NCBI GenBank assembly: GCA_037127955.1
Contig: JBAXXI010000001.1
Location: 73,217 to 137,216 of the forward strand
Source: Candidatus Berkelbacteria bacterium
GTDB taxonomy: Bacteria; Patescibacteriota; UBA1384; UBA12157
Length of the DNA stretch: 64,000 nucleotides
Reading direction: 5' to 3'
In this document: in pieces, positions 2,243 to 64,000 of the stretch
Numbering within the stretch: position 1 is the first letter of the stretch
Layout: each line of letters starts with the position of its first letter
Translations under genes and position numbers: made by a program
The notes under the pieces: model-generated
What the model was told of the DNA's origin: nothing
The model's database searches: none
What the model saw: only the letters and a program-made list of their open reading frames with translations

Positions 2243-3226
2243 TTATTTTAATACAATCCTCCAAGAGTCATTAAGTATTTCTAAACGACCATCAATCGTA
2301 AAACCAGCCGCTTTTTTATGTCCACCGCCACCAAAAACCGCCGCAATTTTCGAAACATCCACGCGATCACTTTCAGTTCGGACTGATGCCTTAATTTTAT
2401 TATCGCTAGTTTCGTGAAAAAGAATAGCTGCTTTTGAGTCTGGCACAGTATTAATCAAATTAACCACTCCGGCCAAATCATCATCACAAGCGTTGCACAA
2501 AACCAAATCTTCCCTGGTAATAACTGATGAAACAATACCTAAATTATTATTTCGATGCATTCTTTTCAAAGCTAAACCCCAAAGCTTCATGGCCGGCACA
2601 GTTTTGTTTAAACTAATATTTTGTGTGATTAATTTAATTTTGCCACCGTTTTTCAAAAGTTCACCAGCGATTTCTAAAGTTTGCTTTGACGTATTCGAAT
2701 GCTTAAAACCACCCGTATCAGTATAAATTCCAGTCAAAAGCGCGGTCGCCATATTTTTATCAAATTCAACATTCATCCTCACACAAAGTTCGTAAACAAT
2801 TTCAGAAGTACTTGAAACAGATTGATCAACCACATTGATATTAGCGATTTTATGCAAATCATTTTTCGGATGATGATCAATATTAATCAAAGTTTTTTTC
2901 TGAGTTAAAGCAAACTTTTTTAATCTCTCGGCAAAACCAGTTCGCTTAATATCGCCACAATCAATCACGGTAATTACGTCGTAATCGCCGAAAAGTAAGT
3001 CATGCTTAATTTCATTAACTTCAGGTAAAAACAAAAACGGTTTCGGAATTTGATCTTTGCAAACCATGGCCGGTGATTTACCCATTTTTTTTAATATGGT
3101 ATAAATTACCGTAGCCGCAGCCAAAGTATCGCCATCCGGATTTTCATGTATAATCAATAGAATTTTATCAGCATTGATAAATCTAGCGATCGCTTTATTA
3201 ATTGGGATTTTATTTGTGTTCTGCAT
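2243..3226 (-). CDS. DHH/DHHA1 phosphoesterase (NrnA-like oligoribonuclease/pAp phosphatase)
   Basis: Motifs HENPDGDT, DHH (IDHHP) and GGGGH near the C-terminus. Start probably MQNTNKIP at 3226 rather than the ORF-track start at 3340, which would overlap the upstream ORF. Confidence 0.7.
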   Translation of the reverse strand: MQNTNKIPINKAIARFINADKILLIIHENPDGDTLAAATVIYTILKKMGKSPAMVCKDQIPKPFLFLPEVNEIKHDLLFGDYDVITVIDCGDIKRTGFAERLKKFALTQKKTLINIDHHPKNDLHKIANINVVDQSVSSTSEIVYELCVRMNVEFDKNMATALLTGIYTDTGGFKHSNTSKQTLEIAGELLKNGGKIKLITQNISLNKTVPAMKLWGLALKRMHRNNNLGIVSSVITREDLVLCNACDDDLAGVVNLINTVPDSKAAILFHETSDNKIKASVRTESDRVDVSKIAAVFGGGGHKKAAGFTIDGRLEILNDSWRIVLK

Positions 3227-7727: not shown

Positions 7728-7814
7728 TGGTGCCGGAAGCGGGACTCGAACCCGCAAGCTTTTAACGGCGCTACCACCTCAAGGTAGTGGGTTTACCAAT
7801 TTCCCCATCCCGGC
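7728..7814 (-). tRNA. tRNA-Leu (GAG), long variable arm, CCA encoded
   Basis: Anticodon stem CTACC/GGTAG with loop TTGAGGT. T-arm GGGTTCGAGTCCC. Confidence 0.85.
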
Positions 7815-8444
7815 TTGCTTTTTATTTTCTTCTTTTAAGGCTTTGTCAATTTTTTCTTTTTTTCGACTTAAGTGAATACAATTTTTATCTTGGTACATTT
7901 TTTCAATTATCACTTTGCTAGCAACTTTGGCAAATGTTAGCTTGTAGCAACCCTTAACTTGTCTAATTTTACCCTCACACCCAGTGAGTTTTAATATTCT
8001 ATCTTTAAGCCAGTCGATGTGTTTTATACTAGCCGACAGAAACTGCAAGTAAATCATAAAACTACTTTTCCAACGCGGATCCCAGTAAGAATAAGTCGAA
8101 CCGTCGCCGTCAAAATGGCCGCGTAAAAAATCAAAAAAGTATTTATCTGGCACTTTTATTTCGGCAATGATTTTTGTCTTATTTGGCATTAAACCGATTT
8201 CGATTAGCCATCTATAAAATTTGACATGACTAAATTGAAGTCTGGGAAATTTTTTACCATCGTAACCGCCAGTTTTCCAAGTAATTTTAATATTTGTATT
8301 CAAACACTTATTAAAATTTTCCAATTGATCAATATCGTTTGAGGTCAAATCCAAGTGACGAGCATCTTTCGACAAACTTCCATCTGTCACCATTAAACCG
8401 ACAGCATAAGCTAAATTTGGTGACCATTCAAACTCATTCATCAA
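7779..8444 (-). CDS. free-standing LAGLIDADG homing endonuclease (double-motif)
   Basis: Motif 1 LAYAVGLMVTDGSLS and motif 2 FDFLRGHFDGDGS. The 3' end of the ORF (last about 12 codons) overlaps the 5' end of tRNA-Leu(GAG). Confidence 0.8.
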   Translation of the reverse strand: MMNEFEWSPNLAYAVGLMVTDGSLSKDARHLDLTSNDIDQLENFNKCLNTNIKITWKTGGYDGKKFPRLQFSHVKFYRWLIEIGLMPNKTKIIAEIKVPDKYFFDFLRGHFDGDGSTYSYWDPRWKSSFMIYLQFLSASIKHIDWLKDRILKLTGCEGKIRQVKGCYKLTFAKVASKVIIEKMYQDKNCIHLSRKKEKIDKALKEENKKQAGMGKLVNPLP

Positions 8445-16637: not shown

Positions 16638-16655
16638 CGGAATACTGAAATTCCG
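16638..16655 (-). promoter_or_regulatory. leader hairpin motif A (CGGAATTTCAGTATTCCG on the minus strand) between a GGTATAGT -10-like element (16673-16680) and tRNA-Leu(UAG)
   Basis: Identical 18-mer to 38356-38373 after reverse-complementing. Same position relative to a GGTATAnT box. Confidence 0.5.
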
Positions 16656-16697
16656 CGTTAATCTATAGATTAACTATACCTTATTTTCAACGATTAA

Positions 16698-21575: not shown

Positions 21576-22328
21576 TTAATCATTGAGACCTTCCTCCATT
21601 TTTTCAATTTGAACTAAAATATTTTCGTCAAATTCCGCCCAACCACGAGTCATTTTCACCAGTTTTAAATAAAGCGATACTAAGGGCAGATTTTTATTAC
21701 CAATTGAAATGTTATCTTCCGCTACCCTGTATTTTAATAATTTCTCTTTGCTCGAAGCAAATTTATAATTTTTAATTGCGAGTCTAGTAAATAAATCATA
21801 ATCTTCGGCAATTTTAAAAAACTGATTGTAAGGATTATCTAATAAAACTTGTTTGCGCATCGCTACAGTCGAATGAGGAATAAAATTTATTTCTTTAATT
21901 TTTTCAAAAGAATAATCATAAACAGGAAAATTACGATCTTTGATCTCACCGGTTTTTTCATACCAAATATGAAAATCGCTATAAAAAAAATCCAAGGTCG
22001 AATCACGATCAAAAAATTTCAATGTCTCGCTGACCCTATTTTTATAAGCCAAATCATCGGAATCCAGAATAGCTACTATTTCACTTTTTGCTTGCATACA
22101 AGCAAAATTTCGAGCACAACTAGCACCAGTCCCATGCACCTTAGATAAGTAGAAGTATCTTAATCTTGAATCATGAAAATTTTCCACAATCTCTCTGGTA
22201 TTATCAGAGCCGTTATCAACGATGATCGCTTCCCAACTTGAATCATCCTGAGCCAAAAGTGATTTGATAGTCTCGCCAATCTTATCAGCCCGGTTAAAAG
22301 TCGCAATTAAAAATGAAATCTTCGGCAT
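21576..22328 (-). CDS. family 2 glycosyltransferase
   Basis: N-terminal ISFLIATFNRADKI...VDNGS (DXD-type GT-A fold). Confidence 0.8.
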   Translation of the reverse strand: MPKISFLIATFNRADKIGETIKSLLAQDDSSWEAIIVDNGSDNTREIVENFHDSRLRYFYLSKVHGTGASCARNFACMQAKSEIVAILDSDDLAYKNRVSETLKFFDRDSTLDFFYSDFHIWYEKTGEIKDRNFPVYDYSFEKIKEINFIPHSTVAMRKQVLLDNPYNQFFKIAEDYDLFTRLAIKNYKFASSKEKLLKYRVAEDNISIGNKNLPLVSLYLKLVKMTRGWAEFDENILVQIEKMEEGLND

Positions 22329-26834: not shown

Positions 26835-27806
26835 TTAGGCCTTTTTCAAAAATCCAGCGGCAGCTTCCGGTGCGACCACGTCAATGACTACACCAGAACC
26901 CAACTCATAACCACCAAATTTACTCACTCGTGGCGCAATTTCAATATGCCAGTGGTAGGACTCGTGATTATTTTCACTATGGTGCGGCAAAGTATGCAAC
27001 CAATAATTAAATGGTGGAAAATTTAAAGCTTTATTGAGTTTGCCAATTGCTTCGTGAAGCGCCTGGGCCAACTGTTTTTGAGTTTCCGCGGAAATTTTTT
27101 CAAAATTTGACGCGTGCTTTTTCGGCAACACCCACATTTCAAACGGAAAACGCGAAGCAAAAAAAGTAAAAACTAAAAATTCATCATTTTCATAAACCAC
27201 GCGGTGACCATTTTCCTTTTCCATTTTGACCATTTCGCAAAAAACACATTTTTGATTCAAGTCAAAATAAGTTTTAGCTCCATCAAGTTCTTTTTGAACA
27301 TAACTAGGCATGATGGCTGAAGTAAATAACTGCGAGTGAGGATGGTCAATCGAAGCGCCGGCTTCCGGACCATTATTGTGAATAATCATGGTATATTCAT
27401 TCACTGGATCTTCATCGTAGTGCAAATATCTTTGCTTGTAAACCCCTAAAAGTTCATCCATAATCGCCACGCCATCACCGTAAATTTCCTGATCATGACC
27501 CTTAATAATTATGACTTCATGGGCGCCAATACTTTTTGTATCTTGATAAAAACCGTCGCCTTCAGAAATCACACTATCTTCTTTAACAAAAGCGGGGTAT
27601 TTATTGGTAATAGTGTAAGTATTTTCGGTTTCGGCGTCTTTGATTGATGTCTCATAAGCCTGTTTATTTTCCACACAAAACGGACATTCCGAAGGCAAAC
27701 CGCGTTTTGGGGAGGCCGCTGTGACGTAATCTTCTGGTCTTTTTGATCGCTCCGGCGAAATGACAACCCAATCACCCGTAATAATATTTTGTCTAAGTTT
27801 AGGCAA
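26835..27806 (-). CDS. galT: galactose-1-phosphate uridylyltransferase-type (GalT/HIT family) nucleotidyltransferase, TTG start
   Basis: Zinc-site CPFCVENKQ and active-site HPHSQ motif. RBS GGAGGTG, then TTG at 27806. Confidence 0.75.
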   Translation of the reverse strand: MPKLRQNIITGDWVVISPERSKRPEDYVTAASPKRGLPSECPFCVENKQAYETSIKDAETENTYTITNKYPAFVKEDSVISEGDGFYQDTKSIGAHEVIIIKGHDQEIYGDGVAIMDELLGVYKQRYLHYDEDPVNEYTMIIHNNGPEAGASIDHPHSQLFTSAIMPSYVQKELDGAKTYFDLNQKCVFCEMVKMEKENGHRVVYENDEFLVFTFFASRFPFEMWVLPKKHASNFEKISAETQKQLAQALHEAIGKLNKALNFPPFNYWLHTLPHHSENNHESYHWHIEIAPRVSKFGGYELGSGVVIDVVAPEAAAGFLKKA

Positions 27807-27882
27807 AGTGCACCTCCATAATTTTTATACAAAATTCCGCGACAAGCGGAAGCTTGGCTATATTTTGACGTAATTTAGGCAT
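27799..27882 (-). CDS. leader mini-ORF (27 aa, MPKLRQNIAKLPLVAEFCIKIMEVHFA) whose N-terminus mimics the downstream galT-like protein and whose stop overlaps its TTG start
   Basis: SD AGGAGGG then ATG. First 8 codons encode MPKLRQNI, as in the downstream gene, using different synonymous codons. Contains palindromic motif B (GCCAAGCTTCCGCTTGTCGCGGAATTT). Confidence 0.4.
   Translation of the reverse strand: MPKLRQNIAKLPLVAEFCIKIMEVHFA
27832..27864 (-). promoter_or_regulatory. palindromic motif B copy 1 (minus strand GCCAAGCTTCCGCTTGTCGCGGAATTT) in the galT leader
   Basis: Inverted repeat TTCCGC/GCGGAA with a 5-nt spacer. Near-identical copies at 46215-46244 and 46325-46354. Confidence 0.6.
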
Positions 27883-40330: not shown

Positions 40331-40344
40331 AGAATAAATTCTAT

Positions 40345-40367
40345 GCGGAATTTCAGCATGCGGAAAT
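40345..40367 (+). promoter_or_regulatory. motif A variant GCGGAATTTCAGCATGCGGAAAT in the eno leader. A further CGCGGAATTTTTCAAAG copy sits at 40413-40434 next to the palindrome TTTTCAAAgTTTTGAAAA
   Basis: Shares the CGGAATTTCAG core with the copies at 16638 and 38356. Confidence 0.45.
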
Positions 40368-40394
40368 ATGGCCAACAATATTACATTATATTAA

Positions 40395-41756
<1,362 letters not shown>

Positions 41757-44353: not shown

Positions 44354-44488
44354 TACTAATATTATTGTTTAAGAATCTCCATATTTCCAAATACTGAAAT
44401 TCCGCGAGATTTTAAAACTATTGTTTCAAGATCTCCATACTGCTTCGCGACTCGAGATATTAAAGCTATTGTTTTAATATCTCCATAA
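44354..44488 (-). repeat. three tandem diverged copies (about 45-57 nt) of the lepA 3' end (TATGGAGATATTAAAACAATAG and variants), with a degenerate motif A copy (44387-44408) between copies
   Basis: Minus strand: lepA ends ...TTTATGGAGATATTAAAACAATAG, then ...GTATGGAGATCTTGAAACAATAG... and ...ATATGGAGATTCTTAAACAATAA downstream. Confidence 0.7.
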
Positions 44489-46202
44489 AAACGGAATCAG
44501 GGATTTCAAGACGACCCAACTGCTTCATTTTCTTTTTACCAGCCGCCTGCTTTTTCAAAAGTTTATTTTTACGAGTAATATCTCCGCCATAAAGTTTGGC
44601 AATAACATCTTTTTTCATGGCTGAAATATCTTCACGCGCCAAAATTTTACCAGGCTTACCATCAGTGCTATTCATAGCAATTTGAATCATGACCTCAAAC
44701 ATTTGTTTTGGAATCAAATCTTTAAGTTTTAAGGCCAAGGCTTTAGCCTGCGTTTGTACCTGAAAAGCGGGGACAATCTTATTAAATTCATCAATTTGCT
44801 GACTAGCCACAAAAACATCAAGTTTAACTAAATCACCAACTTTCCAGCCAATCAATTCGTAATTTTGCGACGCATACCCTTGAGTAGCCGATTTTAGTTT
44901 ATCGTAAAAATCAATGATAATTTCGGCTAACGGAGCCTCATACTTAATCACCGCCCGATCGCCAAAAAAGTTAGTTGTCTCGTAAACACCTCTTTTCATT
45001 TGAGCGAGTTCCATCACCTGGCCCAAGTATTCTTTTGGCGTAATGATTTCCATTTTAACCCAAGGTTCTTCGTAACGAGGCCTGCCTTCATCATGATTAA
45101 TTCGATATTCAACCGAAGGTTGGGTGACAATTAAATCTAAATTATTCTCGCGCTCCAAACGCTCTTTTACGATCTCTAAATGCAACAATCCCAAGAATCC
45201 ACAACGAAAACCATGACCAAAACTCTGTGAATTTTCAGGTTCATAAATCAAACTTGAATCATTTAATTTTAATTTTTCAAGCGCCGAACGAAGGTGATTA
45301 GGTTCTCCTCCCTGAAGAAAAAATGACGCATAGACCATTGGTTGCGGTTTTTTGTAACCCTCGATAGGGGAGACACCAATAGGGGAATTAAGAGTGACTG
45401 TGTCACCAACTTGAACATCAGCCAAATTTTTAGCGCCCGTCACAATATAGCCGATCTCCCCTGCCTCCAACGAAACTTTCGGCGCATATTTAAGCTTAAA
45501 CTCGCCTACTTCAACGGCCTCGGCGTTTTTATTAGCGGCCATAAATTTAATGCCCACGCCCTTACCCACTTTGCCATCCATCACTCTAATATAAGCAATG
45601 ACCCCACGGTAAGCATCATAAATCGAGTCAAAAATCATAGCCCGAAGCGGAGCCTCTATATCGCCTTTCGGTGCGGGAACTTGTTCAATCACTTTATCTA
45701 AAATTTCCAAAACCCCCTGGCCAGTTTTAGCCGAAACTCTTAAAATATCTTCGTCAAAAACACCGAGTAAATCTTGAATTTCCTCGCTCACCTCTTCGAT
45801 CATAGCATTTGGTAAATCAATTTTATTAATCACTGGTACAATTTTTAGGCCAGCTTTTTGGGCGTGCTCTAAATTAGCCAAAGTTTGGGCTTGAATGCCT
45901 TTCGTCGCATCCACCACCAAAATTGCCCCTTCAACAGCGGCCAAAGATCTTGAAACTTCATAGGCAAAATCAACATGTCCTGGCGTATCGATCAAGTTCA
46001 AGCTGTAACCTTTATAATCCATACGCACTGGCTGAAGTTTGATCGTAATACCGCGCTCACGCTCCAAATCCATGGTGTCGAGCATCTGCGGCTTACTATC
46101 GCGCACTTCAACCGTATGAGTTAACTCCAGCATACGATCAGCTAAAGTTGATTTACCGTGATCAATATGGGCTATAATTACAAAGTTCCTTATTTTATCC
46201 AT
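44466..46202 (-). CDS. lepA: elongation factor 4 (LepA)
   Basis: MDKIRNFVIIAHIDHGKSTLADR (G1 motif) and a LepA C-terminal domain. Start at 46202, preceded by AAAGGAG. Confidence 0.9.
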   Translation of the reverse strand: MDKIRNFVIIAHIDHGKSTLADRMLELTHTVEVRDSKPQMLDTMDLERERGITIKLQPVRMDYKGYSLNLIDTPGHVDFAYEVSRSLAAVEGAILVVDATKGIQAQTLANLEHAQKAGLKIVPVINKIDLPNAMIEEVSEEIQDLLGVFDEDILRVSAKTGQGVLEILDKVIEQVPAPKGDIEAPLRAMIFDSIYDAYRGVIAYIRVMDGKVGKGVGIKFMAANKNAEAVEVGEFKLKYAPKVSLEAGEIGYIVTGAKNLADVQVGDTVTLNSPIGVSPIEGYKKPQPMVYASFFLQGGEPNHLRSALEKLKLNDSSLIYEPENSQSFGHGFRCGFLGLLHLEIVKERLERENNLDLIVTQPSVEYRINHDEGRPRYEEPWVKMEIITPKEYLGQVMELAQMKRGVYETTNFFGDRAVIKYEAPLAEIIIDFYDKLKSATQGYASQNYELIGWKVGDLVKLDVFVASQQIDEFNKIVPAFQVQTQAKALALKLKDLIPKQMFEVMIQIAMNSTDGKPGKILAREDISAMKKDVIAKLYGGDITRKNKLLKKQAAGKKKMKQLGRLEIPDSVFMEILKQ

Positions 46203-46281
46203 GTATCTCCTTTGTAATTTCCGCGACAAACGGAAGTTTGGCCATAATTACGAAATTACGAATATTTGTTTGATTATCCAT
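46195..46281 (-). CDS. leader mini-ORF U2 (28 aa, MDNQTNIRNFVIMAKLPFVAEITKEIHG) mimicking the lepA N-terminus. Its stop overlaps the lepA ATG (CATGGATAA)
   Basis: The N-terminus MD..IRNFVI(M/I)A parallels lepA MDKIRNFVIIA with synonymous codon differences (CGT/AGG, AAT/AAC, TTC/TTT). Contains motif B (GCCAAACTTCCGTTTGTCGCGGAAATT). Confidence 0.4.
   Translation of the reverse strand: MDNQTNIRNFVIMAKLPFVAEITKEIHG
46215..46244 (-). promoter_or_regulatory. palindromic motif B copy 2
   Basis: Minus strand GGCCAAACTTCCGTTTGTCGCGGAAATT. Confidence 0.6.
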
Positions 46282-46354
46282 GTTGTTCCCCTGTTTCTAT
46301 GAAAACAAATTGATGTAATTTCGTAATTTCCGCGCAAATCCGAAGATTTGCCAT
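46274..46354 (-). CDS. leader mini-ORF U3 (26 aa, MANLRICAEITKLHQFVFIETGEQHG) containing the motif B variant. Its stop overlaps the U2 ATG
   Basis: ATGGCAAATCTTCGGATTTGCGCGGAAATTAC parallels the internal ATGGCCAAACTTCCGTTTGTCGCGGAAATTAC of U2. Confidence 0.3.
   Translation of the reverse strand: MANLRICAEITKLHQFVFIETGEQHG
46325..46354 (-). promoter_or_regulatory. palindromic motif B copy 3 (variant)
   Basis: Minus strand GGCAAATCTTCGGATTTGCGCGGAAATT. Confidence 0.5.
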
Positions 46355-46380
46355 TATTACAAAATTCATTGAGTTATTCA

Positions 46381-47775
46381 TTAGCGATGTTTCTCCATTT
46401 CTTTCAAAGCATCTTCTCTTGTATTAATTTTTCCATCCAGATAAGCTTGCTCTAAATAACTTTTAATTTGACCAACTTCTGGCCCTGCTTCAATCTTAAG
46501 TATTTTCATAATATCTTCGCCAGTGACCAAATCGAATTTTTTTACTTGATTTTTTTCTTCTTCACTGGTCTCGGCCTCAAATTTGGCGCGCAGCGCCAAT
46601 GCGTCTTGGTACATTTTCATATCTGGCTCATGATTCGGTCGAAGACTAGCCGACAAATCCGCTTTGGTCAAATCTAGAAGCAACTCAATATTTGGATCTA
46701 CAAAAAGCTTTTTTTGTTTGCGCTCACTCATACCAGTAAAAGCATGAACAATCCGCATGTGTTGACGGATCGCCCAACAAACTCTACTGATAAAATGACG
46801 CGAAAATTTAAAACGTTCCAGGATTTCTTCAGCTTGTTTAGCTGACTGAATATCATGATCAAAAAAAGTAATACTAGTTTTATTTTTTTCGGCCCTAAAA
46901 CCAATCGTTTCTGGTTTGGCAATATCATGAAGTAAAACTGTCCATACTAACTCCTCTGAGAGAGTTTCACCAATATTAATTAAAGCCAAAAGCACATGCG
47001 TCCAGACATCACCTTCAGCGTGAAATTCTTTTGGTTGTGGTACATTTTTCATTTTTGCCAGTTCTGGCGAAATTTCATCTAGCAAACCCAACTCATCAAG
47101 CATCTCAATAGCCAAATGTCTATTTTTTAATAATAACATTTTGCTAAATTCTTCACGAATTCTTTCAATAGAAATTTGCCCAATATTACTCGCTAATCGT
47201 TTGATCGCGATTTTAGATTCTTTTTCAAACATAAAACCGAAACGAATCGCAAATCTAACCGCTCTAAGCATACGCAAATAATCTTCGTTAATGCGATCAT
47301 CGGCATTTCCGATAAATCGAATATATTTTCTTTTAATATCTGTCAGTCCGTCAATATAGTCAATAATCTCAGATTTAATTGGATTGTAAAACATACCATT
47401 GATTGTAAAATCACGGCGTTGAGCATCTTTTAAGCTCGATGAAAACTTTACAGACTCAGGATGACGATGGTCACCCACTCCAACATCTTCACGAAAAGTC
47501 GCTACTTCAAATTCATGATTATCGATCTTAACCGCCACCACTCCAAATGATTTGCCGCGATCCTCAGCCATAGGAAAAATCTTTTTGATTTCTTCTGGAT
47601 GAGCAGCAGTGGCAATATCAATATCATGGGTCTCAACTCCTAAAATCATATCTCGAACAGCACCACCAGCAATATATGTTTCAAACCCCGCTTCTTGCAA
47701 GGTTTTCACCACATCAAAAGCCGCCGATTCTTCATCGGTCAAAGGACGTTCAATTTTAAAATTTATCTTTTCCAC
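46381..47775 (-). CDS. cca: CCA-adding tRNA nucleotidyltransferase / poly(A) polymerase family protein with HD domain
   Basis: Pol-beta-like head GGAVRDMILGVETHDIDIAT and a C-terminal HD domain pattern (HD...H). Confidence 0.8.
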   Translation of the reverse strand: MEKINFKIERPLTDEESAAFDVVKTLQEAGFETYIAGGAVRDMILGVETHDIDIATAAHPEEIKKIFPMAEDRGKSFGVVAVKIDNHEFEVATFREDVGVGDHRHPESVKFSSSLKDAQRRDFTINGMFYNPIKSEIIDYIDGLTDIKRKYIRFIGNADDRINEDYLRMLRAVRFAIRFGFMFEKESKIAIKRLASNIGQISIERIREEFSKMLLLKNRHLAIEMLDELGLLDEISPELAKMKNVPQPKEFHAEGDVWTHVLLALINIGETLSEELVWTVLLHDIAKPETIGFRAEKNKTSITFFDHDIQSAKQAEEILERFKFSRHFISRVCWAIRQHMRIVHAFTGMSERKQKKLFVDPNIELLLDLTKADLSASLRPNHEPDMKMYQDALALRAKFEAETSEEEKNQVKKFDLVTGEDIMKILKIEAGPEVGQIKSYLEQAYLDGKINTREDALKEMEKHR

Positions 47776-58037: not shown

Positions 58038-61000
58038 TTAATTTATCTTTTTCATCTTGATATTGACTGAAACCAAGGTCTTTTCCTTCTCAAGATACAT
58101 AATATGAGACTTGAAATCAGTATATTCTGGTTTGGTGGCAGTCAAGTAATAAATACCAGGATTAACCAAGAACTTAAACCGACCATCGATATCAGTTACA
58201 TCTGTTTCGACTAATCTATTTGTACGTTTTTCGTAAATTCTCACGATCGTAGTCTCAAGTGGTCGACCAAAAATATCAGTAACAACACCATATGGTCTGG
58301 CTCGTTTGGTTCTTAAATATTCCCAAATCGCAATCAAAATATAAAATATTAAGGAGAAAATATAGAAAATATTAATCGAAATAATCATCAAAACAATGGC
58401 AAACATTATACCTAGAACCAACAAGACGATTCTAACAGTATTTAAAATTCGGTTAAGCTTGATGGTAAAGACTAACAATTTATAACTAAAAGATAATTTA
58501 GTTTGAGCATCCATTGGCACATTAATAGTGACCGTTTTATCCTTACTATCAATCTCTAAGACTTCACCAGTATAAACCGAATCGAAGAAACCACTAACTT
58601 TCATAACTGACGGGAAAGTATAACCATTTTTTTGAACTGTTAAATAGTATTTGCCTGTTCTGACCAAGAAGCCAAATCTACCTTCACCATCGGAAACCGC
58701 AGTTTCAAGTAAACGATTATATTCTTTATCAAAAATCTTAATCAAAGCATAAGGAATGGCTTGACCGGTTTGTGAATTAAAGACCGTACCCCATGGCTTT
58801 CGTCGTTTACGAATGCCCAAAAATTGGAACAAATGACTCAAAAGATAAAGAAGTTGTGGCCAAATATTGGCAGTCGCTAAAACAGCGTTTAGAACAATTG
58901 GTGCGGCCAATAAAGAACTGGTTGTAACAATAACAGCGTTGGAAACACTCTTAGCTTCTGGAGTTAAACCTTCGGTACTAATATTAGCAAACAAACTATT
59001 AATCTGATCTTGGGTTTTTTGCAAAGTACTAGTAACACCATTGCCAATAACTTTGATCTGTACATTTTGTTGAATCTGCCCGTCAGTCACAGTTAGCTTC
59101 TGGTCACCCACAGTATTTAGAGTAAAATCTGAGCCGTCGAACGAGTGTGTACCAGTATCAGACGCACTAAAGGTGTACTTATGATCACTATTCCAAATTA
59201 ATTCGGCTTTTTTATCAGAAGATGTAAAGTAAATTTCGCCTAGATAAGATTGAATTCTGGCGCCACCATTGTCAACCGCGCTCACTTTAACCTTATCGTT
59301 AAAAGTCTGACCAGCATTAATTTTATCTGGAGTATTATCAAGTACAAGATAAGCTTGAACCGCTAAGGCATCGCCTTTTTTGGTTGAAACATTCAAAATA
59401 CTAGATTTCAAAGAAGTATTACCGGCTGCGTCATAAGCTTTAATATAGAAATTATAAACAGTTTCTGGAGTCAATTGAGTCAAATCAAAATCAGTATTTG
59501 AAGTTGTACCGATCATGACATCAGTATCGGCATTGAATATTTTATAACCGGTTACACCGACATTATCGGTCGAAGCATCCCAGGCCAAACTAATCTCAGT
59601 CGATTTGATAACGGTAGCTCGAAGATTGGTCGGCGCAGTTGGCCCTTCATTATCCGTAACGTTCGTCGGCGTCAAAGCTAATTGTTCGGTTCCACTGGAG
59701 ATATGACCAAGTGAATCAATCGCTTTTAAGGTATAATAATAAGTCACGCCATTGGTCAAATTGGAATCAGTATAAGATGTTCCGGTTTGACCCGTAGCTA
59801 ATTTTACCCCTTGAACTGTTTTTTCAAGTGAACGATAAATGTCGATCGATTTGAAATATGTTGACGAAGGATTGGTCCAAGTCAATTCGACCTGACCATT
59901 ACCAGCTACTCCAGAAAAGTTAATCGGATTATCAATTGAGGCTGGGTAAGTTCCAAATGTCACTTCAATAGTGTGATTGGCCGTAATTGAGCTAAAGGTA
60001 TAAGTTTCAAGATCATATTTTGAAACGCCATCAACCTGAACATTCCTAATAAAGTAACCAGAATTGGCACTAATCGTAAAGGTTTTATTTGAAAGCGCAT
60101 CCACTATTATCGAACCACTTGGTGTAATACTACCTCCGTTACCTGACGAAGCAGTAATAGTATAAGTCGTAACAGCAATGGTCGCAGCGATCGTGTGATC
60201 AGTAGTGACATTGCTAAAAGTATAAGTAGCCAAAGCCCCAACCGAGACACCATCAATCTTCAAGTCTTCAATATAATAACCGGCATCAGGAGTGATAGTG
60301 TAGATCTGGCTCGAACCATCATCAACCAAAGTCGAACCAGATGGCGAGACTGTACCGTGGGCATTAATCGTGGCCGTAATGGTATGGCTTGTTCCAGTAG
60401 GAGTAACCGGATTTGCGCTAAAACTAGCCGAAATTGTATGATTCGTGGTTACAGTGGTAAAGGTATAATTACTGACCGAACCAACTGAAACACTATCAAC
60501 CAAAACATCTTCAATATGATAACCAGATGAAGGCAAAATCGTATAAGCCTGGTTTGAACCATAATTAACTGTTGTCGCACCGTCCGGATCAATCGAACCA
60601 TGCGAACCAGCTAAAGCCGTTATTGTTTTTGTATCAACTATAAATGTTGCTGAAATAGTATGAGAAGTAGTAACGTTGTTAAAAGTATAAGTTGTCACAG
60701 AACCGACCGAGACACCGTCAACTAATACATCCAAAACGTGGAAATTATCATTGGCCGTAATAGTGTAGGCTCGATTTGAACCATAATTAATCGCCGTAAC
60801 ACCGGTTGGTGAAATCGAACCATTAGTGCCAGCCGAAGCTGTAATATTATTAGTATCGATGGCGAAAGTCGCAGACACTGTTAAATTAGAGGTAATATTT
60901 GAATCGGTACGAGCTTCCGTTAAAACTCCATCAGACCAAGAAACAAAATGATAATGAGCACTTGGCACGGCCGTAACCTGAGAACCGTTACCTCCATAAT

Positions 61001-64000
61001 TAACGGTTTGTGGGGTGGTACCCGTGATCGAACCGTTTGAACCAGCATTATAGGTCAGAGTGTAAGTATTGATCGCAAAAGTCGCCGTTACAGTGATATT
61101 ATCTGTTACATTAAGGTCTGTTCTGGCTGCCGTCATCACATTATCCGACCATTTAACAAAATGATAATTGGCTGCCGGTACAGCTGTCACTTGAGCACCA
61201 TTTGAACCATAACCAACGGTTTGAGAGGTTGTACCAGTGATTGAGCCGTTTGAACCAGCATTATAGGTCAGGGTGTAAGTGTTGATGGCAAAATCAGCAG
61301 TGACGGTGATATCGGTAGTAATATTTAAATCGGTTCGAGCGGCTGTCATCACGTTGTCAGACCACTTAACGAAGTGATAATTCGTATCAGGTATAGCTAC
61401 AACTTGCGTACCATCCCCACCAACATAAACTGTCTGGGAAGCATTGCCAGAAATAGTACCATGTGAACCAGCTGTATAAGATAAAGTGTATTGATTTTCG
61501 GCAGCAAAATTAGCCGTGACTGTAATATTACCTGTCACATTTAGATCAGTTCTGGCCGCCGTCAAAACACCATCAGACCAAGTAGTAAAATGATAATTCA
61601 AATTTGGTACAGCTGTAACTTGTGTGCCGTTTGCACCATAATTGACGGTTTGTGGGGTAATACCTGTAATCGAACCATTCGCACCAGCTGAGTAAGTTAA
61701 GGTATAAGTATTAACAGCAAAAGTGGCGGTCACAGTTATGTCAGCTGTAATATCTAAATCAGTACGAGCGGCGGTCATGACATCGTCTGACCATTTAACA
61801 AAATGATAATTTGTATTTGGCGTAGCAATAACTTCACTACCGTTTGCACCATAACCAACAGTTTGAGGAGTTATGCCGACAATCGTACCGTTAGAATCAT
61901 GATTGTAAGTTAAGGTGTAAGTATTAATAGCGAAGGTCGCGGTGACTGTAATATCATTTGACACACTAGAATCAGTACGAGCCGCCGTCATCACATTATC
62001 TGACCACTTAACAAAATGGTAATTAGAATCTGGAACAGCCGTAACCTGAGAACCACTACCTCCGTAATTGACAGTCTGAGGAGTAGTACCAGTAATTGAA
62101 CCATGCGAACCAGCCGAGTAAGTTAAGGTATAAGAATTTATAGCAAATGTAGCACTAACTGTTAAATCAGAAGTAATGTTTTGATCAATACGGGCCGCGG
62201 TCATCACGTCGTCTGACCATTTAACAAAATGATAGTTGTCATCAGGAACAGCCAGGACTTGGCCACCGTTAGCACCATAATTGACGGTTTGAGGTGTTAC
62301 ACCAGACACAGAACCATGAGAACCAGCATTGTAAGTTAGAGTGTAAGTATCAATGGCAAAGGTCGCCGTTACGGTTACATCAGCCGTGATATTCGAATCA
62401 GTACGAGCAGCCGTTAAAACGCCATCAGACCAAGAAACAAAATGATAGTGAGCACTTGGCACGGCCGTAACCTGAGAACCGTTACCTCCATAATTGACGG
62501 TTTGTGGGGTAATACCTGTAATCGAACCATTCGCACCAGCAGAATAAGTCAAAGTATAAGTATCAATGGCAAAAGTGGCGGTGACCGAAATATTAGCTGT
62601 GATGTTTGAATCTGTTCTAGCCGCCGTCATGACATCGTCCGACCATTTAACAAAATGGTAATTGGCCGCCGGAACCGCTGTTACCTGCGTACCGCTAGCA
62701 CCATAATTGACAGTTTGTGGGGTAGTACCAGTGATCGAACCGTTTGCACCAGCAGAGTAAGTCAAAGTGTAAGTATCGATGGCAAAGGTTGCAGTGACTG
62801 TAATATTATCCGTCACATTCAAATCAGTACGAGCTGCCGTCATGATGTCGTCTGACCATTTGACAAAATGATAATGAGCGCTCGGTACGGCTGTAACTTG
62901 AGTACCATTTGCGCCATAATTAATGGTTTGAGGATTGGTACCAGTAACCGAGCCATTGCCATCGTTGTTATAAGTCAAAGTATAAGTATTAATCGCGAAA
63001 GTCGCCGTTACCGTAATATTAGCTGTAACGTTAAGATCAGTACGAGCCGCCGTTAAGACATTATCAGACCAAGAAACAAAATGATAATGAGCCGACGGAA
63101 CCGCTGTCACCTGTGTACCATTTGCGCCATAATTAATGGTTTGAGGATTGGTACCAGTAACCGAGCCATTGCCATCGTTGTTATAAGTCAAAGTATAAGT
63201 ATTAATCGCGAAAGTCGCCGTTACCGTAATATTAGCTGTAACGTTAAGATCAGTACGAGCCGCCGTTAAGACATTATCAGACCAAGAAACAAAATGATAA
63301 TGAGCCGACGGAACCGCTGTCACCTGTGTACTATTTGCGCCATAATTAATTGTTTGCGGCGTAGTGCCCGTAATTGAACCATTTGAACCGGCATTATAGG
63401 TTAAAGTGTATGTATCGATGGCAAATGTCGCCGTTACCGTAATATCAGCTGTAATATTTGAATCGGTACGAGCGGCTGTCAGTACGCCATCAGACCAGGA
63501 AACAAAATGATAATGAGAGTTTGGCACGGCGGTTACTTGAGTACCGTTTGTACCATAATCAACAGTCTGAGGGGTGGTACCAGTAATTGAACCATTTAAG
63601 CTAGCATTATAAGTCAAAGTGTAGGTATTAATCGCAAAGGTCGCAGTGACAGTCAAATTAGCTGTGATATTTTGATCAATACGGGCCGCCGTCATCACGT
63701 CGTCTGACCACTTAACAAAGTGGTAATTGGCGTCTGGCACAGCTAAAACTTGGCCACCATTAGCACCATAATTGACGGTTTGAGGTGTTACACCAGAGAC
63801 CGAACCATGAGAACCAGCATTGTAAGTTAGAGTATAAGTGTCGATCGCAAAAGTAGCCGTTACCGTAATATTGGCCGTAACATTAAGATCAGTACGAGCG
63901 GCAGTCATGACATCGTCTGACCATTTAACAAAATGGTAATGAGAGTTTGGTACGGCGGTGACTTGCGTACCGTTTGCGCCATAATCAACAGTCTGAGGGG
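58038..64000 (-). CDS. giant cell-surface protein (over 1956 aa; 5' end beyond window). At least 14 tandem 71-aa Listeria/Bacteroides-type repeats (TYTLTY...YHFVSWSD...), then divergent Ig-like repeats, two FN3 domains, two carboxypeptidase-regulatory-like domains and C-terminal TM segments
   Basis: Repeat consensus TYTLTYNAGSNGSITGTTPQTVNYGANGTQVTAVPSAHYHFVSWSDGVLTAARTDLNVTANITVTATFAIN. The FN3 hallmark is LTWTNP...YYYTLKAID. The reading frame continues open to the window end. Confidence 0.8.
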   Translation of the reverse strand, partial: PQTVDYGANGTQVTAVPNSHYHFVKWSDDVMTAARTDLNVTANITVTATFAIDTYTLTYNAGSHGSVSGVTPQTVNYGANGGQVLAVPDANYHFVKWSDDVMTAARIDQNITANLTVTATFAINTYTLTYNASLNGSITGTTPQTVDYGTNGTQVTAVPNSHYHFVSWSDGVLTAARTDSNITADITVTATFAIDTYTLTYNAGSNGSITGTTPQTINYGANSTQVTAVPSAHYHFVSWSDNVLTAARTDLNVTANITVTATFAINTYTLTYNNDGNGSVTGTNPQTINYGANGTQVTAVPSAHYHFVSWSDNVLTAARTDLNVTANITVTATFAINTYTLTYNNDGNGSVTGTNPQTINYGANGTQVTAVPSAHYHFVKWSDDIMTAARTDLNVTDNITVTATFAIDTYTLTYSAGANGSITGTTPQTVNYGASGTQVTAVPAANYHFVKWSDDVMTAARTDSNITANISVTATFAIDTYTLTYSAGANGSITGITPQTVNYGGNGSQVTAVPSAHYHFVSWSDGVLTAARTDSNITADVTVTATFAIDTYTLTYNAGSHGSVSGVTPQTVNYGANGGQVLAVPDDNYHFVKWSDDVMTAARIDQNITSDLTVSATFAINSYTLTYSAGSHGSITGTTPQTVNYGGSGSQVTAVPDSNYHFVKWSDNVMTAARTDSSVSNDITVTATFAINTYTLTYNHDSNGTIVGITPQTVGYGANGSEVIATPNTNYHFVKWSDDVMTAARTDLDITADITVTATFAVNTYTLTYSAGANGSITGITPQTVNYGANGTQVTAVPNLNYHFTTWSDGVLTAARTDLNVTGNITVTANFAAENQYTLSYTAGSHGTISGNASQTVYVGGDGTQVVAIPDTNYHFVKWSDNVMTAARTDLNITTDITVTADFAINTYTLTYNAGSNGSITGTTSQTVGYGSNGAQVTAVPAANYHFVKWSDNVMTAARTDLNVTDNITVTATFAINTYTLTYNAGSNGSITGTTPQTVNYGGNGSQVTAVPSAHYHFVSWSDGVLTEARTDSNITSNLTVSATFAIDTNNITASAGTNGSISPTGVTAINYGSNRAYTITANDNFHVLDVLVDGVSVGSVTTYTFNNVTTSHTISATFIVDTKTITALAGSHGSIDPDGATTVNYGSNQAYTILPSSGYHIEDVLVDSVSVGSVSNYTFTTVTTNHTISASFSANPVTPTGTSHTITATINAHGTVSPSGSTLVDDGSSQIYTITPDAGYYIEDLKIDGVSVGALATYTFSNVTTDHTIAATIAVTTYTITASSGNGGSITPSGSIIVDALSNKTFTISANSGYFIRNVQVDGVSKYDLETYTFSSITANHTIEVTFGTYPASIDNPINFSGVAGNGQVELTWTNPSSTYFKSIDIYRSLEKTVQGVKLATGQTGTSYTDSNLTNGVTYYYTLKAIDSLGHISSGTEQLALTPTNVTDNEGPTAPTNLRATVIKSTEISLAWDASTDNVGVTGYKIFNADTDVMIGTTSNTDFDLTQLTPETVYNFYIKAYDAAGNTSLKSSILNVSTKKGDALAVQAYLVLDNTPDKINAGQTFNDKVKVSAVDNGGARIQSYLGEIYFTSSDKKAELIWNSDHKYTFSASDTGTHSFDGSDFTLNTVGDQKLTVTDGQIQQNVQIKVIGNGVTSTLQKTQDQINSLFANISTEGLTPEAKSVSNAVIVTTSSLLAAPIVLNAVLATANIWPQLLYLLSHLFQFLGIRKRRKPWGTVFNSQTGQAIPYALIKIFDKEYNRLLETAVSDGEGRFGFLVRTGKYYLTVQKNGYTFPSVMKVSGFFDSVYTGEVLEIDSKDKTVTINVPMDAQTKLSFSYKLLVFTIKLNRILNTVRIVLLVLGIMFAIVLMIISINIFYIFSLIFYILIAIWEYLRTKRARPYGVVTDIFGRPLETTIVRIYEKRTNRLVETDVTDIDGRFKFLVNPGIYYLTATKPEYTDFKSHIMYLEKEKTLVSVNIKMKKIN
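60650..64000 (-). repeat. tandem 213-bp coding repeats inside the giant surface protein gene (some adjacent units identical, e.g. about 62940-63366)
   Basis: Identical translated mini-ORFs in the six-frame track at 62868 and 63081 (offset 213 bp), and a visibly periodic DNA sequence. Confidence 0.8.

Follow-up and report, generated by a model that had tools for sequence, protein, structure and literature searches.

A small palindromic repeat flanked by duplicated gene ends at lepA and other genes of a Candidatus Berkelbacteria genome

Two overlapping mini-ORFs lie between cca and lepA in the window analysed here (one stretch of 64 kb from a Candidatus Berkelbacteria genome, CPR), and both recall the N-terminus of LepA. 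An earlier note on this DNA took them for leader ORFs, carrying a palindrome that encodes a conserved peptide and kept by long-term selection on that peptide. The locus thus raises the question of whether such mini-ORFs form a dedicated leader-peptide device or have another origin. Our analysis suggests that they are probably former lepA starts, orphaned by duplication, and no device of that kind.

Mini-ORFs upstream of lepA and galT

Read along the minus strand, cca (46381-47775) is followed by U3, U2 and lepA (ATG at 46202, stop at 44466).

46274..46381, minus strand: mini-ORF U3, probably the older orphaned lepA start, 35 aa, MNNSMNFVIMANLRICAEITKLHQFVFIETGEQHG
46195..46281, minus strand: mini-ORF U2, probably the younger orphaned lepA start, 28 aa; its N-terminus is the real LepA N-terminus of the closest relatives
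44466..46202, minus strand: lepA (EF4), 578 aa

U2 reads exactly as first described (46281-46195, minus strand, MDNQTNIRNFVIMAKLPFVAEITKEIHG), and both mini-ORFs terminate in CAT GGA TAA, overlapping the start of the next ORF at ATGGATAA. U3 also exists as a mini-ORF but does not start at 46354, since its open frame begins with the ATG at 46381. This ATG overlaps the cca stop as TAATG, and the U3 stop TAA sits on the U2 start. The NFVIMA block is present in the 35-aa U3 as well, and an orthologue of the U3 ORF (P0241, MNNIRNFVIMAKLPLVAEITKLHQFVFIDARGYNG) is found in the relative L021. A 27-mer of the mini-ORF repeat has two occurrences against 0 expected; searches for the mini-ORFs gave 7 in the profile search and 5 in the exhaustive search of representatives.

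The galT-like gene has the same architecture, as had been claimed. Its mini-ORF (27882-27799, minus strand, MPKLRQNIAKLPLVAEFCIKIMEVHFA) precedes the TTG at 27806 and shares its first 8 residues with GalT, all nucleotide differences being synonymous.

27799..27882, minus strand: probable orphaned galT start, 27 aa, with its own GGAGG and ATG; the stop TAA lies on the real TTG start
27825..27867, minus strand: galT repeat unit, CAAAAT-ATAG-[CCAAGC TTCC GCTTG]-TCGCGGAATTTTG; 55.3 bits with covariance model R1
26835..27806, minus strand: galT-like gene, TTG start, 323 aa

The mini-ORFs do copy the N-terminus of the downstream protein, that of LepA in U2 and that of GalT in the galT mini-ORF. Each of U3, U2 and the galT mini-ORF has a Shine-Dalgarno (SD)-like site and an ATG, which makes them candidate uORFs as judged from sequence, and at the loci examined every orphan stop falls within -14 to +8 nt of the next start. 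By gene spacing, the P0123 locus represents an empty site, the ruvC-galT spacer there being only 12 nt.

Relatives provide a clue to the origin of U2. The nearest LepA orthologues (P0002 and P0003) begin with MDNQTNIRNFVIIA, which is the U2 peptide itself (DNA identity 37/38), and in the window the functional lepA begins with MDKIRNFVIIA, a copy of the start that has been shortened and recoded. Because the closest orthologues start with exactly the U2 peptide, U2-type mini-ORFs are best taken as orphaned gene starts; the idea of a convergent or purpose-built mimic does not survive this comparison. Elsewhere, one unit of the repeat described below is found at lepA in L021, L034 and L035 and two in L026 and L033, a LepA-like orphan start preceding the unit in all five. 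L023 and L024 have no unit, and their lepA overlaps the upstream gene by 4 nt. The bipA start of another CPR genome (L029) is arranged in the same manner as lepA. Some duplications are very young, with 31/33 identical positions in L033 and 24/25 in L029, whose 25-nt bipA repeat includes the SD.

Two schemes for the copies were rejected. Nested whole-gene replacement (two orphans per lepA end) fails with relatives that have one or two 5' units without any 3' duplication. Simple tandem duplication of the unit plus the start fits bipA and U2 of the window, but not L021, L034, L033 and galT, where no unit precedes the orphan.

The repeat unit, its hairpins and its inverted arms

Each lepA unit is located after one copy of the lepA start and before an SD site and another copy. 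Units are built as (T)ATGG or ATAG – hairpin a – (C)GCGGAAWTT – hairpin b – AAWTAT. Besides the galT unit and those at the lepA stop (below), the window contains the following.

46318..46360, minus strand: repeat unit 1, GTAATA-ATGG-[GCAAATC TTCG GATTTGC]-GCGGAAATTAC; R1 56.4 bits, alignment A5
46209..46251, minus strand: repeat unit 2, GTAATT-ATGG-[CCAAAC TTCC GTTTG]-TCGCGGAAATTAC; R1 61.6 bits
16641..16683, minus strand: unit near tRNA-Leu(tag), ~35 nt upstream, TATAG-[GTTAATCTA TAGATTAAC]-GCGGAATTTCAGTATTCCGAAATAT; non-coding context
40364..40419, plus strand: unit in the enolase 5' UTR, ATGG-[CCAACAT..ATGTTGG]-CGCGGAATTT; R1 24 bits, E 0.004

The enolase unit was left out of the training of R1, and a partial unit (40338-40363) lies just upstream of it. 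In total there are ~7 units at 5 loci in the 64-kb window, those at 16641-16683, 40364-40419 and 44383-44438 being new with respect to the first description. The GCGGAAWTT motif occurs 12 times against 3.2 expected, a count reached in 0/100 shuffles. Units lie beside gene starts, but also at a tRNA, in a 5' UTR, after stops and in other frames.

Outside the window, a tandem pair of units follows the galT stop in L027, and units follow tRNAs in a Saccharibacteria genome (L005). In all, ~20 units from ~9 loci and 8 genomes were examined, lying in the transcribed sense at 9/9 loci; scans of public data gave very few copies. The core-motif scan of genome representatives returned one real match, the Saccharibacteria locus; that of metagenomes returned the same locus plus unrelated GC-rich repeats, and that of viral contigs 4 chance matches in GC-rich DNA. 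An AT-rich partial match (L006/L008) went unrecognised by the covariance model and was treated as chance. No Rfam family matches: a permissive search of the leader and a search of the whole window at the gathering threshold yielded only tRNAs and spurious hits. Members of this repeat family are scattered over gene boundaries of the present Berkelbacteria lineage, and some other CPR genomes have them too.

Hairpin cells are paired in 86.9% of cases against 71.5% in shuffles (observed value reached in 0/500), 7 pairs are changed on both sides, and slid registers pair only 30-49%. In unit 2, for example, the stem CAAAC/GTTTG is a double change relative to CAAGC/GCTTG. The conserved hairpin is not the TTCCGY/GCGGAA palindrome originally proposed; it lies between ATGG and GCGGAA and consists of CAAGC/GCTTG and its covarying versions. 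Neither does a palindrome encode a conserved peptide, for the stem covaries, frames differ and units occur in non-coding contexts too. The unit is read in a different frame in L026-u1 and, as called, in L029-e2, and the element-encoded peptides vary (AKLPLVAEIT, ANLRICAEIT, ANQFDLRGNY, GKLKHKNIMRLAAEIT, VSLKADAEIT). Because the hairpin covaries and the reading frames differ, the conserved property of the unit is, on the alignment, its predicted structure and not a peptide. Folding energies of single leaders are significant for U3 (MFE z-score -3.2) and L026 (-4.0) and unremarkable for U2 (-0.4) and galT (+0.1). A K-turn was rejected for the conserved internal loop, since in alignment A5 the non-bulged strand reads without GA. 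GCGGAA as a -35 box fits the tRNA-Leu copy only, and a pattern scan gives no support for it; scanned for sigma-70 patterns, the lepA leader yielded no promoter. The galT unit is the only one to show a terminator-like hairpin with a T run; the lepA leader has none.

In addition, neighbouring codons recur within the unit as a short inverted copy, giving predicted stems around the next SD and start, or around the stop.

46303..46328, minus strand: long tail, 26-nt inverted copy of U2 codons 4-12 (I1, 85% complementary), 5' arm of a stem
46246..46271, minus strand: 3' arm of the long-tail stem, U2 codons CAA ACA AAT ATT CGT AAT TTC GTA ATT
46210..46219, minus strand: short tail AATTACAAAG, perfect 10-nt complement of lepA codons AA(C TTT GTA ATT) (I4, 100%)

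The 31-nt loop of the long-tail stem contains the U2 SD (GGGGA) and ATG; in L021 the real lepA start is enclosed by the same stem, in which G/A paired with C/T is a compensatory change. The short-tail stem (-9.7 kcal/mol, 0/300 shuffles) has a 24-nt loop with the SD AGGAG and the lepA ATG, and its L033 equivalent, in which AATTACAAAA pairs with TTTTGTAATT, is again a compensatory change. These two changes support the enclosing stems. Both the upstream and the downstream copy are possible pairing partners of the tail. At galT, the unit tail ATTTTGT complements ACAAAAT in the real galT codons (I3). The order direct – inverted – direct, with the turn at the palindrome, recurs in the window (I1, I4 and I5), in L021 (I1) and at galT (I3). 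The inverted arms copy local gene sequence, differing among lepA, galT, bipA and the lepA 3' end, and the flanking direct repeats are of variable length (19-45 nt) with 35-80 nt between copies.

The lepA stop region mirrors the start: MEILKQ-stop is triplicated, with repeat units in between.

44466..44486, minus strand: lepA 3' end, copy 1, functional, ATG GAG ATA TTA AAA CAA TAG
44439..44465, minus strand: spacer A, starting with TTTAATATCTC, followed by degenerate CGCGAA..CAGT
44418..44438, minus strand: lepA 3' end, copy 2, probable orphan, ATG GAG ATC TTG AAA CAA TAG
44383..44417, minus strand: right half of a full repeat unit, TTTTAAAATCTC-GCGGAATTTCAGTATTTGGAAAT
44362..44382, minus strand: lepA 3' end, copy 3, probable orphan, beside the native terminator, ATG GAG ATT CTT AAA CAA TAA
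44322..44346, minus strand: likely native lepA terminator, ATACCGC GTTAT GCGGTAT and then a T run, read from the sequence and unlisted by the pattern scan

The TTTAATATCTC of spacer A is a perfect 11-nt inverted copy of GAGATATTAAA (I5), which leaves the stop codon in an 8-nt loop. The first 12 nt of 44383..44417 exactly complement GAGATTTTAAAA, codons used by relatives. The relatives themselves are without the MEILKQ-stop triplication.

Origin of the copies and the synonymous bias

The strong synonymous bias between orphan and functional copies was confirmed. By Nei-Gojobori-type (NG) counting, Sd is 31 on 42 sites and Nd is 18 on 195 (P 1.6e-12), and the IRNFVI block has 17 synonymous codon differences for 1 replacement. 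However, long-term selection on the peptide does not follow, as the three MEILKQ-stop copies at the lepA stop also differ only synonymously and a leader function is inapplicable there. By their bias, the copies are not simply recent identical target-site duplicates in random decay; very young, near-identical duplications do exist in L033 and L029. U3, the oldest orphan, has replacements within the conserved block. Between genomes 4-fold sites differ by 47%, yet the orphans look "frozen"; the leader between units is far more conserved than neutral DNA and the tail is 37/38 identical, which, at the level of sequence, points to function and not just to a scar. Had the copies simply been duplicated in situ and then decayed neutrally, a synonymous-only pattern would not be expected. 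The bias needs recent events, diverged donors, alternating states or real selection. A diversity-generating retroelement was rejected, since the copy differences are not restricted to adenines.

The reading that we consider probable is a repeat-associated, direct-plus-inverted duplication of gene ends, with orphan ORFs relaying ribosomes. A unit within the first codons comes with a direct copy of the initiation region (from the SD or start codon to the insertion point), which regenerates an intact gene 3' of the unit. Direct and inverted copies may both derive from one replication or recombination accident at the palindrome, whether by fold-back and a template switch or by illegitimate joining where the AWTAT|GG microhomology recurs. 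This could happen in situ or involve the DNA of a diverged relative, and the survivors would be only those events that rebuilt the reading frame. The orphan ORFs would remain open and terminate on the next start codon, so that ribosomes from cca would be relayed through the hairpins, melt the stem around the next SD and AUG and re-initiate. Such a relay would keep the ancestral translational coupling of cca and lepA.

In an alternative scenario, horizontally moving cassettes, [unit + tail + SD + start + first codons] or [last codons + stop + unit], replace gene ends, the orphan being the recipient's own former gene end and the donor a diverged relative, or the spread being homing-like. Joining would be illegitimate at AWTAT|GG and homologous inside the gene (homology-facilitated illegitimate recombination, HFIR, after DNA uptake). 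This possibility, which we consider fairly unlikely, would not need selection on the orphans to account for their "frozen" look and for differences that are only synonymous. The tail complements the downstream and not the upstream copy in U2 of the window, L035 and galT; tail and new start would therefore travel together. Similarly, the recoded start ATAAGGAAYTTTGTAATTAT is near-identical downstream of units in the window, L026, L033 and L035, while its orphan versions vary at third positions, and ATTATGGCC, at the unit's left end, matches lepA ATTATAGCC in 8/9 positions. ComEC-type competence genes are present in these genomes, and HFIR is documented in transformable bacteria. Nevertheless, the first 150 nt of lepA give no significant mosaic signal (7 vs 6 informative sites, 35% gene-wide), tail-to-start loops differ greatly among lineages, unlike in a recently spread cassette, and in-situ duplication is the simpler explanation for the near-identical repeats of L033 and L029. 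Furthermore, no donor was identified and no homing nuclease is linked to the sites. A LAGLIDADG-like ORF does occur at 7779-8444, in a position unrelated to the unit sites.

A selected cis-regulatory leader is a less favoured and rather unlikely explanation. Orphan ORFs and alternative pairings, the tail pairing with either copy, would here form a translational attenuator or relay tuning lepA, bipA and galT. Purifying selection would act on the mimic peptide itself, which might serve, for instance, as a nascent-chain or LepA-interacting signal. The synonymous bias between mimic and real start is in line with this, as are the stems conserved through compensatory changes, the 37/38 conservation of the leader against 47% difference at 4-fold sites, and an architecture kept in at least 6 lepA lineages with orphan stops at the next start. 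Additionally, the L034 and L035 mimics retain the clade consensus MNQENIRNFVI though their codons no longer pair with the tail. On the other hand, the region behind the lepA stop follows the same duplication logic, and the units at a tRNA and in a UTR have no orphan ORF beside them. The peptide encoded by the element shows no conservation, and the U3 replacements fall in the conserved block. L021 seems to have lost one unit harmlessly, and L023 and L024 do without any leader. A literature search found no known lepA leader system.

Far less credible is that the upstream start is the true one and that ribosomes bypass, or frameshift over, the unit to make one LepA, as in T4 gene 60 or mitochondrial byp elements. 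A hairpin directly follows a potential take-off codon, a matching codon lies downstream (ATT...ATT), an SD-like sequence precedes the landing region, and deleting the part between repeats would give the ancestral protein. However, the downstream copy has its own SD, start codon and full N-terminus, no stop immediately follows the take-off codon, the same units are found at tRNA and 3' sites, and gene callers and orthologue lengths agree with the downstream start. Chance similarity or an assembly artefact, favoured by nothing but the short matches common in an AT-rich background, is practically negligible given the identical lepA arrangement in the independent assemblies L019 (Logan) and L020 (ENA), orthologous arrangements in 5 other lineages and motif statistics far above chance.

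A more far-reaching reading appears rather unlikely: the unit as a "self-healing" element, with hairpins built from the host's terminal codons, the gene end copied both ways and the orphans selected as relay ORFs. Such an element could sit inside the essential lepA, bipA and galT without killing them, and the orphan starts might even be functional β1-strand mimics of the GTPase.

Relation to known repeats and significance

Small repeats directly upstream of genes and in sense orientation have been described as REP2 in Neisseria and IR-A/IR-B in Borrelia, many of them being taken for small hypothetical ORFs or fused to the ORFs next to them (Delihas 2011, PMC3184786). The likeness to REP2 is one of design only: window-type units are sense-oriented, with hairpins a and b, an ATG(G) start and, in the lepA-type tail, an SD (AAGGAG). 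The present units are shorter, however (~45-60 nt), and REP2 is not reported with direct-plus-inverted duplication of the first or last codons of the host gene. As in REP/BIME/REPIN, BOX, RUP, ERIC, Correia and Rickettsia RPE repeats, we find short GC-rich hairpins in an AT-rich genome, co-transcribed at gene boundaries, with stems kept by compensatory change and some copies fused to gene ends or in frame within genes. The short imperfect palindrome with dispersed extragenic copies is a trait shared with REP/REPIN, but the flanks conserved here are ATGG/ATAG and GCGGAAWTT, with no GTAG or CGTC tag. No enzyme able to move the repeat, and no RAYT or Y1 transposase, was found among the 10 window ORFs scanned. 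Unlike in MITEs, the inverted arms outside the core are gene-specific and not constant TIRs, and the duplications of MITEs and Correia elements measure 2-9 nt, against the variable 19-45 nt seen here. Rickettsia RPEs are read in frame as part of the protein; in the present case the gene starts anew.

Integrating elements such as e14 in icd and prophages in tRNA 3' ends replace the end of the gene they interrupt. They likewise leave an intact gene and a displaced end copy differing mainly synonymously; but they are kilobases long, with an integrase and an att core, while here 35-80 nt separate the copies and no recombinase is evident. Translationally coupled uORFs also have a short ORF with an SD ending at the next start, and an arm of the stem enclosing SD and AUG inside the short ORF. 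Here, in contrast, the uORF duplicates the gene's own start and the same repeat occurs where nothing is translated. We identified no ligand-sensing or stalling-responsive feature, and the units are not confined to leaders as those of a leader-peptide attenuator would be, for they lie by tRNA-Leu, after the lepA stop, at the L027 galT stop and at the L005 tRNAs. Tandem inversion duplication in Salmonella is a related case of inverted duplication. Inverted triplications formed by ODIRA (PMC4689423, PMC10766183) and template-switch mutations at quasi-palindromes (PMC3820800, PMC8604942) share the order direct – inverted – direct, the turn at a short palindrome and arms perfected by copying the opposite arm. 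Those cases are kilobase amplifications or single events, whereas the present ones are recurrent and micro-scale, involve one repeat family and are found at gene termini.

The units are best read as a new variant among small palindromic repeats, and a repeat with duplicated gene ends on its flanks is an unusual architecture, apparently undescribed so far. If it holds, it shows how compact CPR genomes, with overlapping genes and no intergenic space, tolerate such repeats: the gene end is rebuilt along with the insertion, and short ORFs that overlap in a chain preserve translational coupling. Candidate causes of the coding-type substitution pattern in displaced gene ends are selection, repeated recombination with diverged relatives, and switching between the orphan and the functional state. 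If the units were indeed self-healing and the relay ORFs selected, they would constitute a conserved translational relay in CPR bacteria. For annotation, "hypothetical proteins" of 27-50 aa and wrong starts at lepA, bipA, galT and eno would be repeat scars, and covarying stems that enclose SD and AUG offer a comparative handle on RNA-level control in unculturable organisms.

Mini-ORFs preceding lepA and galT

By its LepA and GalT, the source organism is Candidatus Berkelbacteria, within the CPR (Patescibacteria), and two independent assemblies of it (L019 from Logan, L020 from ENA) show the identical arrangement. The earlier note had described tandem leader mini-ORFs mimicking the LepA N-terminus, with a similar setup at a galT-like gene, and both observations hold. 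The order at lepA is:

46381-47775, minus strand: cca
46381-46274, minus strand: U3, a 35-aa ORF whose start ATG overlaps the cca stop (TAATG)
46281-46195, minus strand: U2, a 28-aa ORF
ATG 46202, stop 44466, minus strand: lepA

U2 is exactly as first read, the stop TAA of U3 and of U2 falls within the ATGGATAA at the following start, and the 27-mer motif is found twice where 0 copies are expected. The NFVIMA peptide is also present in U3. The galT-like gene is preceded by a 27-aa ORF, and MPKLRQNI forms the first 8 residues of both; every nucleotide difference between this orphan (a gene start or end copy cut off beside a repeat unit) and the real galT start is synonymous. The functional galT copy starts with TTG (27806, minus strand) and the orphan retains an ATG and a GGAGG site, nearly all galT orthologues being called with an M start.

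The closest LepA orthologues, P0002 and P0003 (88% identical), start with MDNQTNIRNFVIIAHIDHGK, the U2 peptide, and U2 is identical at 37/38 nt to the real lepA start in the related loci L021 and L022. Therefore, U2 is a former or allelic lepA start severed from its gene. Among relatives, in L021 a single repeat unit precedes lepA and is orthologous to U3, L033 has two, L034 and L035 have one each, and in L026 one 41-aa ORF holds two units; the LepA-like orphan start comes first in all five alike. The lepA of L023 and L024 has no unit and shares 4 nt with the gene before it. Similarly, L027 is without a unit upstream of galT, and the ruvC-galT spacer of one relative is an empty site of only 12 nt. 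In L035 (1800-1880), a hairpin, AACACCTCA..TGAGGTGTT, and a promoter-like TTGCCT-17-TATAAT end 7 nt before the orphan ORF ATG; judging from this sequence, translation of the orphan may in that lineage start on an mRNA with no leader or a very short one.

A dispersed and structured repeat

The 13 repeat copies in our alignment align cleanly. Conserved ATGG (or ATAG) to the left and conserved GCGGAAWTT to the right flank a hairpin of variable sequence (CAAGC/GCTTG, CAAAC/GTTTG, GGTAAGC/GCTTACC, GCCAAGCT/AGCTTGGC, GCAAATC/GATTTGC and GTTAATC/GATTAAC), and pairing also links 6 bases on each side of the unit. Paired cells amount to 86.9% versus 71.5% in shuffles (0/500 as high), both helices being supported, with double-sided changes in 7 pairs of the repeat helices, and slid registers pair only 30-49%. 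Written out in full, a unit reads (T)ATGG – hairpin a – (C)GCGGAAWTT – hairpin b – AAWTAT, which can be followed by another ATGG; the full-unit pattern may also be written ATGG–hairpin–CGCGGAAWTTCAGTMTTCCGAAWTAT. The stem proposed earlier (TTCCGY/GCGGAA) is present only in the commonest variant. Nor does the palindrome encode a conserved peptide, as had been suggested: the peptide varies, and the frame through the unit differs in L026-u1 and, as called, in L029-e2.

A covariance model of the repeat recovers all four training copies in the window and finds an untrained one in the enolase 5' UTR (40364-40419). Another unit lies ~35 nt upstream of tRNA-Leu (16641-16683), and further units are found 3' of the lepA stop. 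Outside the window, L021 has a unit upstream of a holin-family gene, and in a Saccharibacteria MAG a copy following two tRNAs shares 28 identical nt with the galT copy. The unit is in the transcribed sense orientation at 9/9 loci, and Rfam holds nothing resembling it. The repeat is a dispersed and structured element, not a coding motif.

In the window (40398-40467, plus strand), an ATG in the repeat hairpin loop shares the reading frame of enolase, and ORF finders therefore lengthen enolase by 23 residues; the true start is likely the ATG near 40467. A glycosyltransferase ORF contains, within its 3' end, GCGGAATTTGACGAAAATATT (21630-21650, minus strand), read as ..GWAEFDENI... This sequence resembles the repeat right half (GCGGAATTTTCCCGCGAAAATATT in L026) and may represent a remnant of it kept in frame. 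In the Saccharibacteria MAG (CAYZMA010000021; L005 1728-2802), two adjoining ORFs with the reverse-transcriptase motifs FFDSVDH and YCDDFII lie just upstream of the two tRNA genes and the repeat copy (2994-3036). Elsewhere in the window, a 221-aa ORF (7779-8444, minus strand) that weakly matches LAGLIDADG_3 (E 2.6e-4, just under the Pfam cut-off) overlaps tRNA-Leu(gag) (7728-7814) at its 3' end. A 1956-aa ORF (58038-63908, minus strand), probably coding for a large repetitive surface protein, contains 14 tandem 213-nt (71-aa) units, 62-83% identical, at about 60.7-63.9 kb.

Direct and inverted copies of gene ends

Every gene end with a unit inside it occurs in two or three copies. Duplications at the 5' end affect lepA (in the window and five relatives), galT (in the window) and bipA/typA in L029, where there are three units and the repeat GGAGTTAAATGCAAYTAAGAAATAT, 24/25 identical, contains the SD. 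At the 3' end of lepA, the last six codons and the stop occur three times in the window (ATGGAGATATTAAAACAATAG, ATGGAGATCTTGAAACAATAG, ATGGAGATTCTTAAACAATAA), separated by spacers of 27 and 35 nt, the second of which corresponds to the right half of one full unit; this triplication is absent from relatives. No gene-end duplication is seen at the intergenic units (tRNA-Leu, eno, L005 and L027), the last being a case in which the galT stop is directly followed by two tandem full-length units (1080-1165; ATTAATTAAT-CGCGGAAATTCAGTCTTCCGAATTAT and GG-ATCGATAAATCGAT-CGCGGAAATTCAGTATTCCGAATTAT). We infer that insertions within genes are seen only where the rebuilt end leaves the gene intact.

Each unit at a duplicated gene end also has an inverted copy of the adjoining codons. 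The 26-nt tail following unit 1, in U3 (46328-46303), and U2 codons 4-12 (46271-46246) show 85% complementarity, with the U2 SD and ATG in the 31-nt loop. L021 has the matching stem around its real lepA start, and the sole difference is compensatory (tail G/A with C/T in a Phe codon). After unit 2, in U2, AATTACAAAG is perfectly complementary to CTTTGTAATT from the codons of lepA proper, and AGGAG and the lepA ATG lie in the 24-nt loop; in L033, AATTACAAAA pairs with TTTTGTAATT, a second compensatory change. In the window U2, L035 and galT, tail pairing is significant with the downstream copy, not with the upstream copy. At the lepA 3' end, GAGATATTAAA pairs 11/11 with TTTAATATCTC around a loop that holds the stop codon, and the arm of the second 3' unit is complementary without mismatch to GAGATTTTAAAA, the codon choice of relatives. 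Thus, hairpin a can arise from local gene sequence and its inverted copy. Between the window and L021, the tail region is identical at 37/38 positions despite a 47% difference at lepA 4-fold sites; the stems are therefore constrained.

In design, the units are closest to the Neisseria REP2 and Borrelia IR repeats, which lie upstream of genes and comprise two stem-loops, an RBS and an ATG (PMC3184786). The gene-end-fusing repeats REP, MITE, BOX, RUP and RPE come next; no class among them has gene-specific inverted arms or 19-45-nt host-terminus duplications as a defining feature. The units have neither the REP tag nor the MITE TIR/TSD features. Integrative elements with a replacement gene end likewise displace ends with synonymous differences, but here just 35-80 nt lie between the copies.

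Substitution pattern and origin of the copies

Orphan and functional copies differ by 31 synonymous and 18 nonsynonymous changes on 42 and 195 sites (NG counts; pN/pS ~0.13, P 1.6e-12), and the IRNFVI block of six lepA loci shows 17 synonymous codon differences versus 1 replacement. This strong bias agrees with the initial claim that the copies are not a fresh duplication in random decay. Leader-peptide selection is nevertheless disfavoured as its general cause, because the three MEILKQ-stop copies 3' of the lepA stop show synonymous bias too, U3, the oldest orphan, has replacements in the conserved block (pN/pS 0.31 vs its L021 orthologue), the duplications in L033 and L029 are very young, with near-identical copies, and the orphans keep the clade consensus, the derived version being the functional copy downstream of the unit. 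The pattern in these sequences is what would be expected if every copy had evolved as a genuine gene end. Such a history could result from recombination with diverged relatives, or from alternation between orphan and functional state through deletion between repeats; L021 resembles the window arrangement minus unit 2. Real selection is a further candidate. A mosaic test of lepA gave no significant signal.

The anatomy itself is seen in the sequences; as to its cause, we consider it fairly probable that an accident at a palindrome produced direct and inverted copies of gene ends, that products with an intact gene survived, and that the orphans relay ribosomes. A replication or recombination accident would generate the direct – inverted – direct layout, either by fold-back and template switching or by illegitimate joining at the recurrent junction AWTAT|GG. 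At its left end the unit has ATTATGGCC, which is similar to ATTATAGCC of lepA, and the re-entry point is ATGG in every case (ATGGAT, ATGGAG, ATGGAGG). On a larger scale, template switching has been documented to yield inverted triplications (PMC4689423, PMC10766183); quasi-palindrome switches that perfect hairpin arms are documented too (PMC3820800, PMC8604942). Selection would then retain only the products whose gene is intact. The orphan ORFs are open in all loci and end -14 to +8 nt from the next start. Ribosomes arriving from cca through the stop/start overlap would be relayed through the hairpins, opening the stem at the next SD and AUG and re-initiating there, and this relay would substitute for the 4-nt overlap coupling of relatives without the unit.

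A self-healing element combined with a selected translational relay or mimic peptide seems to us unlikely. The mini-ORFs and their synonymous bias are real; a conserved leader-peptide or mimic system is supported only in part. Two findings count against leader-peptide attenuation: the peptide that the element encodes varies, and copies of the repeat also occur outside leaders. No lepA leader system turned up in a search of the literature. We rate the finding as real and wider than the earlier note said; it groups with small palindromic repeats and has an interesting evolutionary signature.
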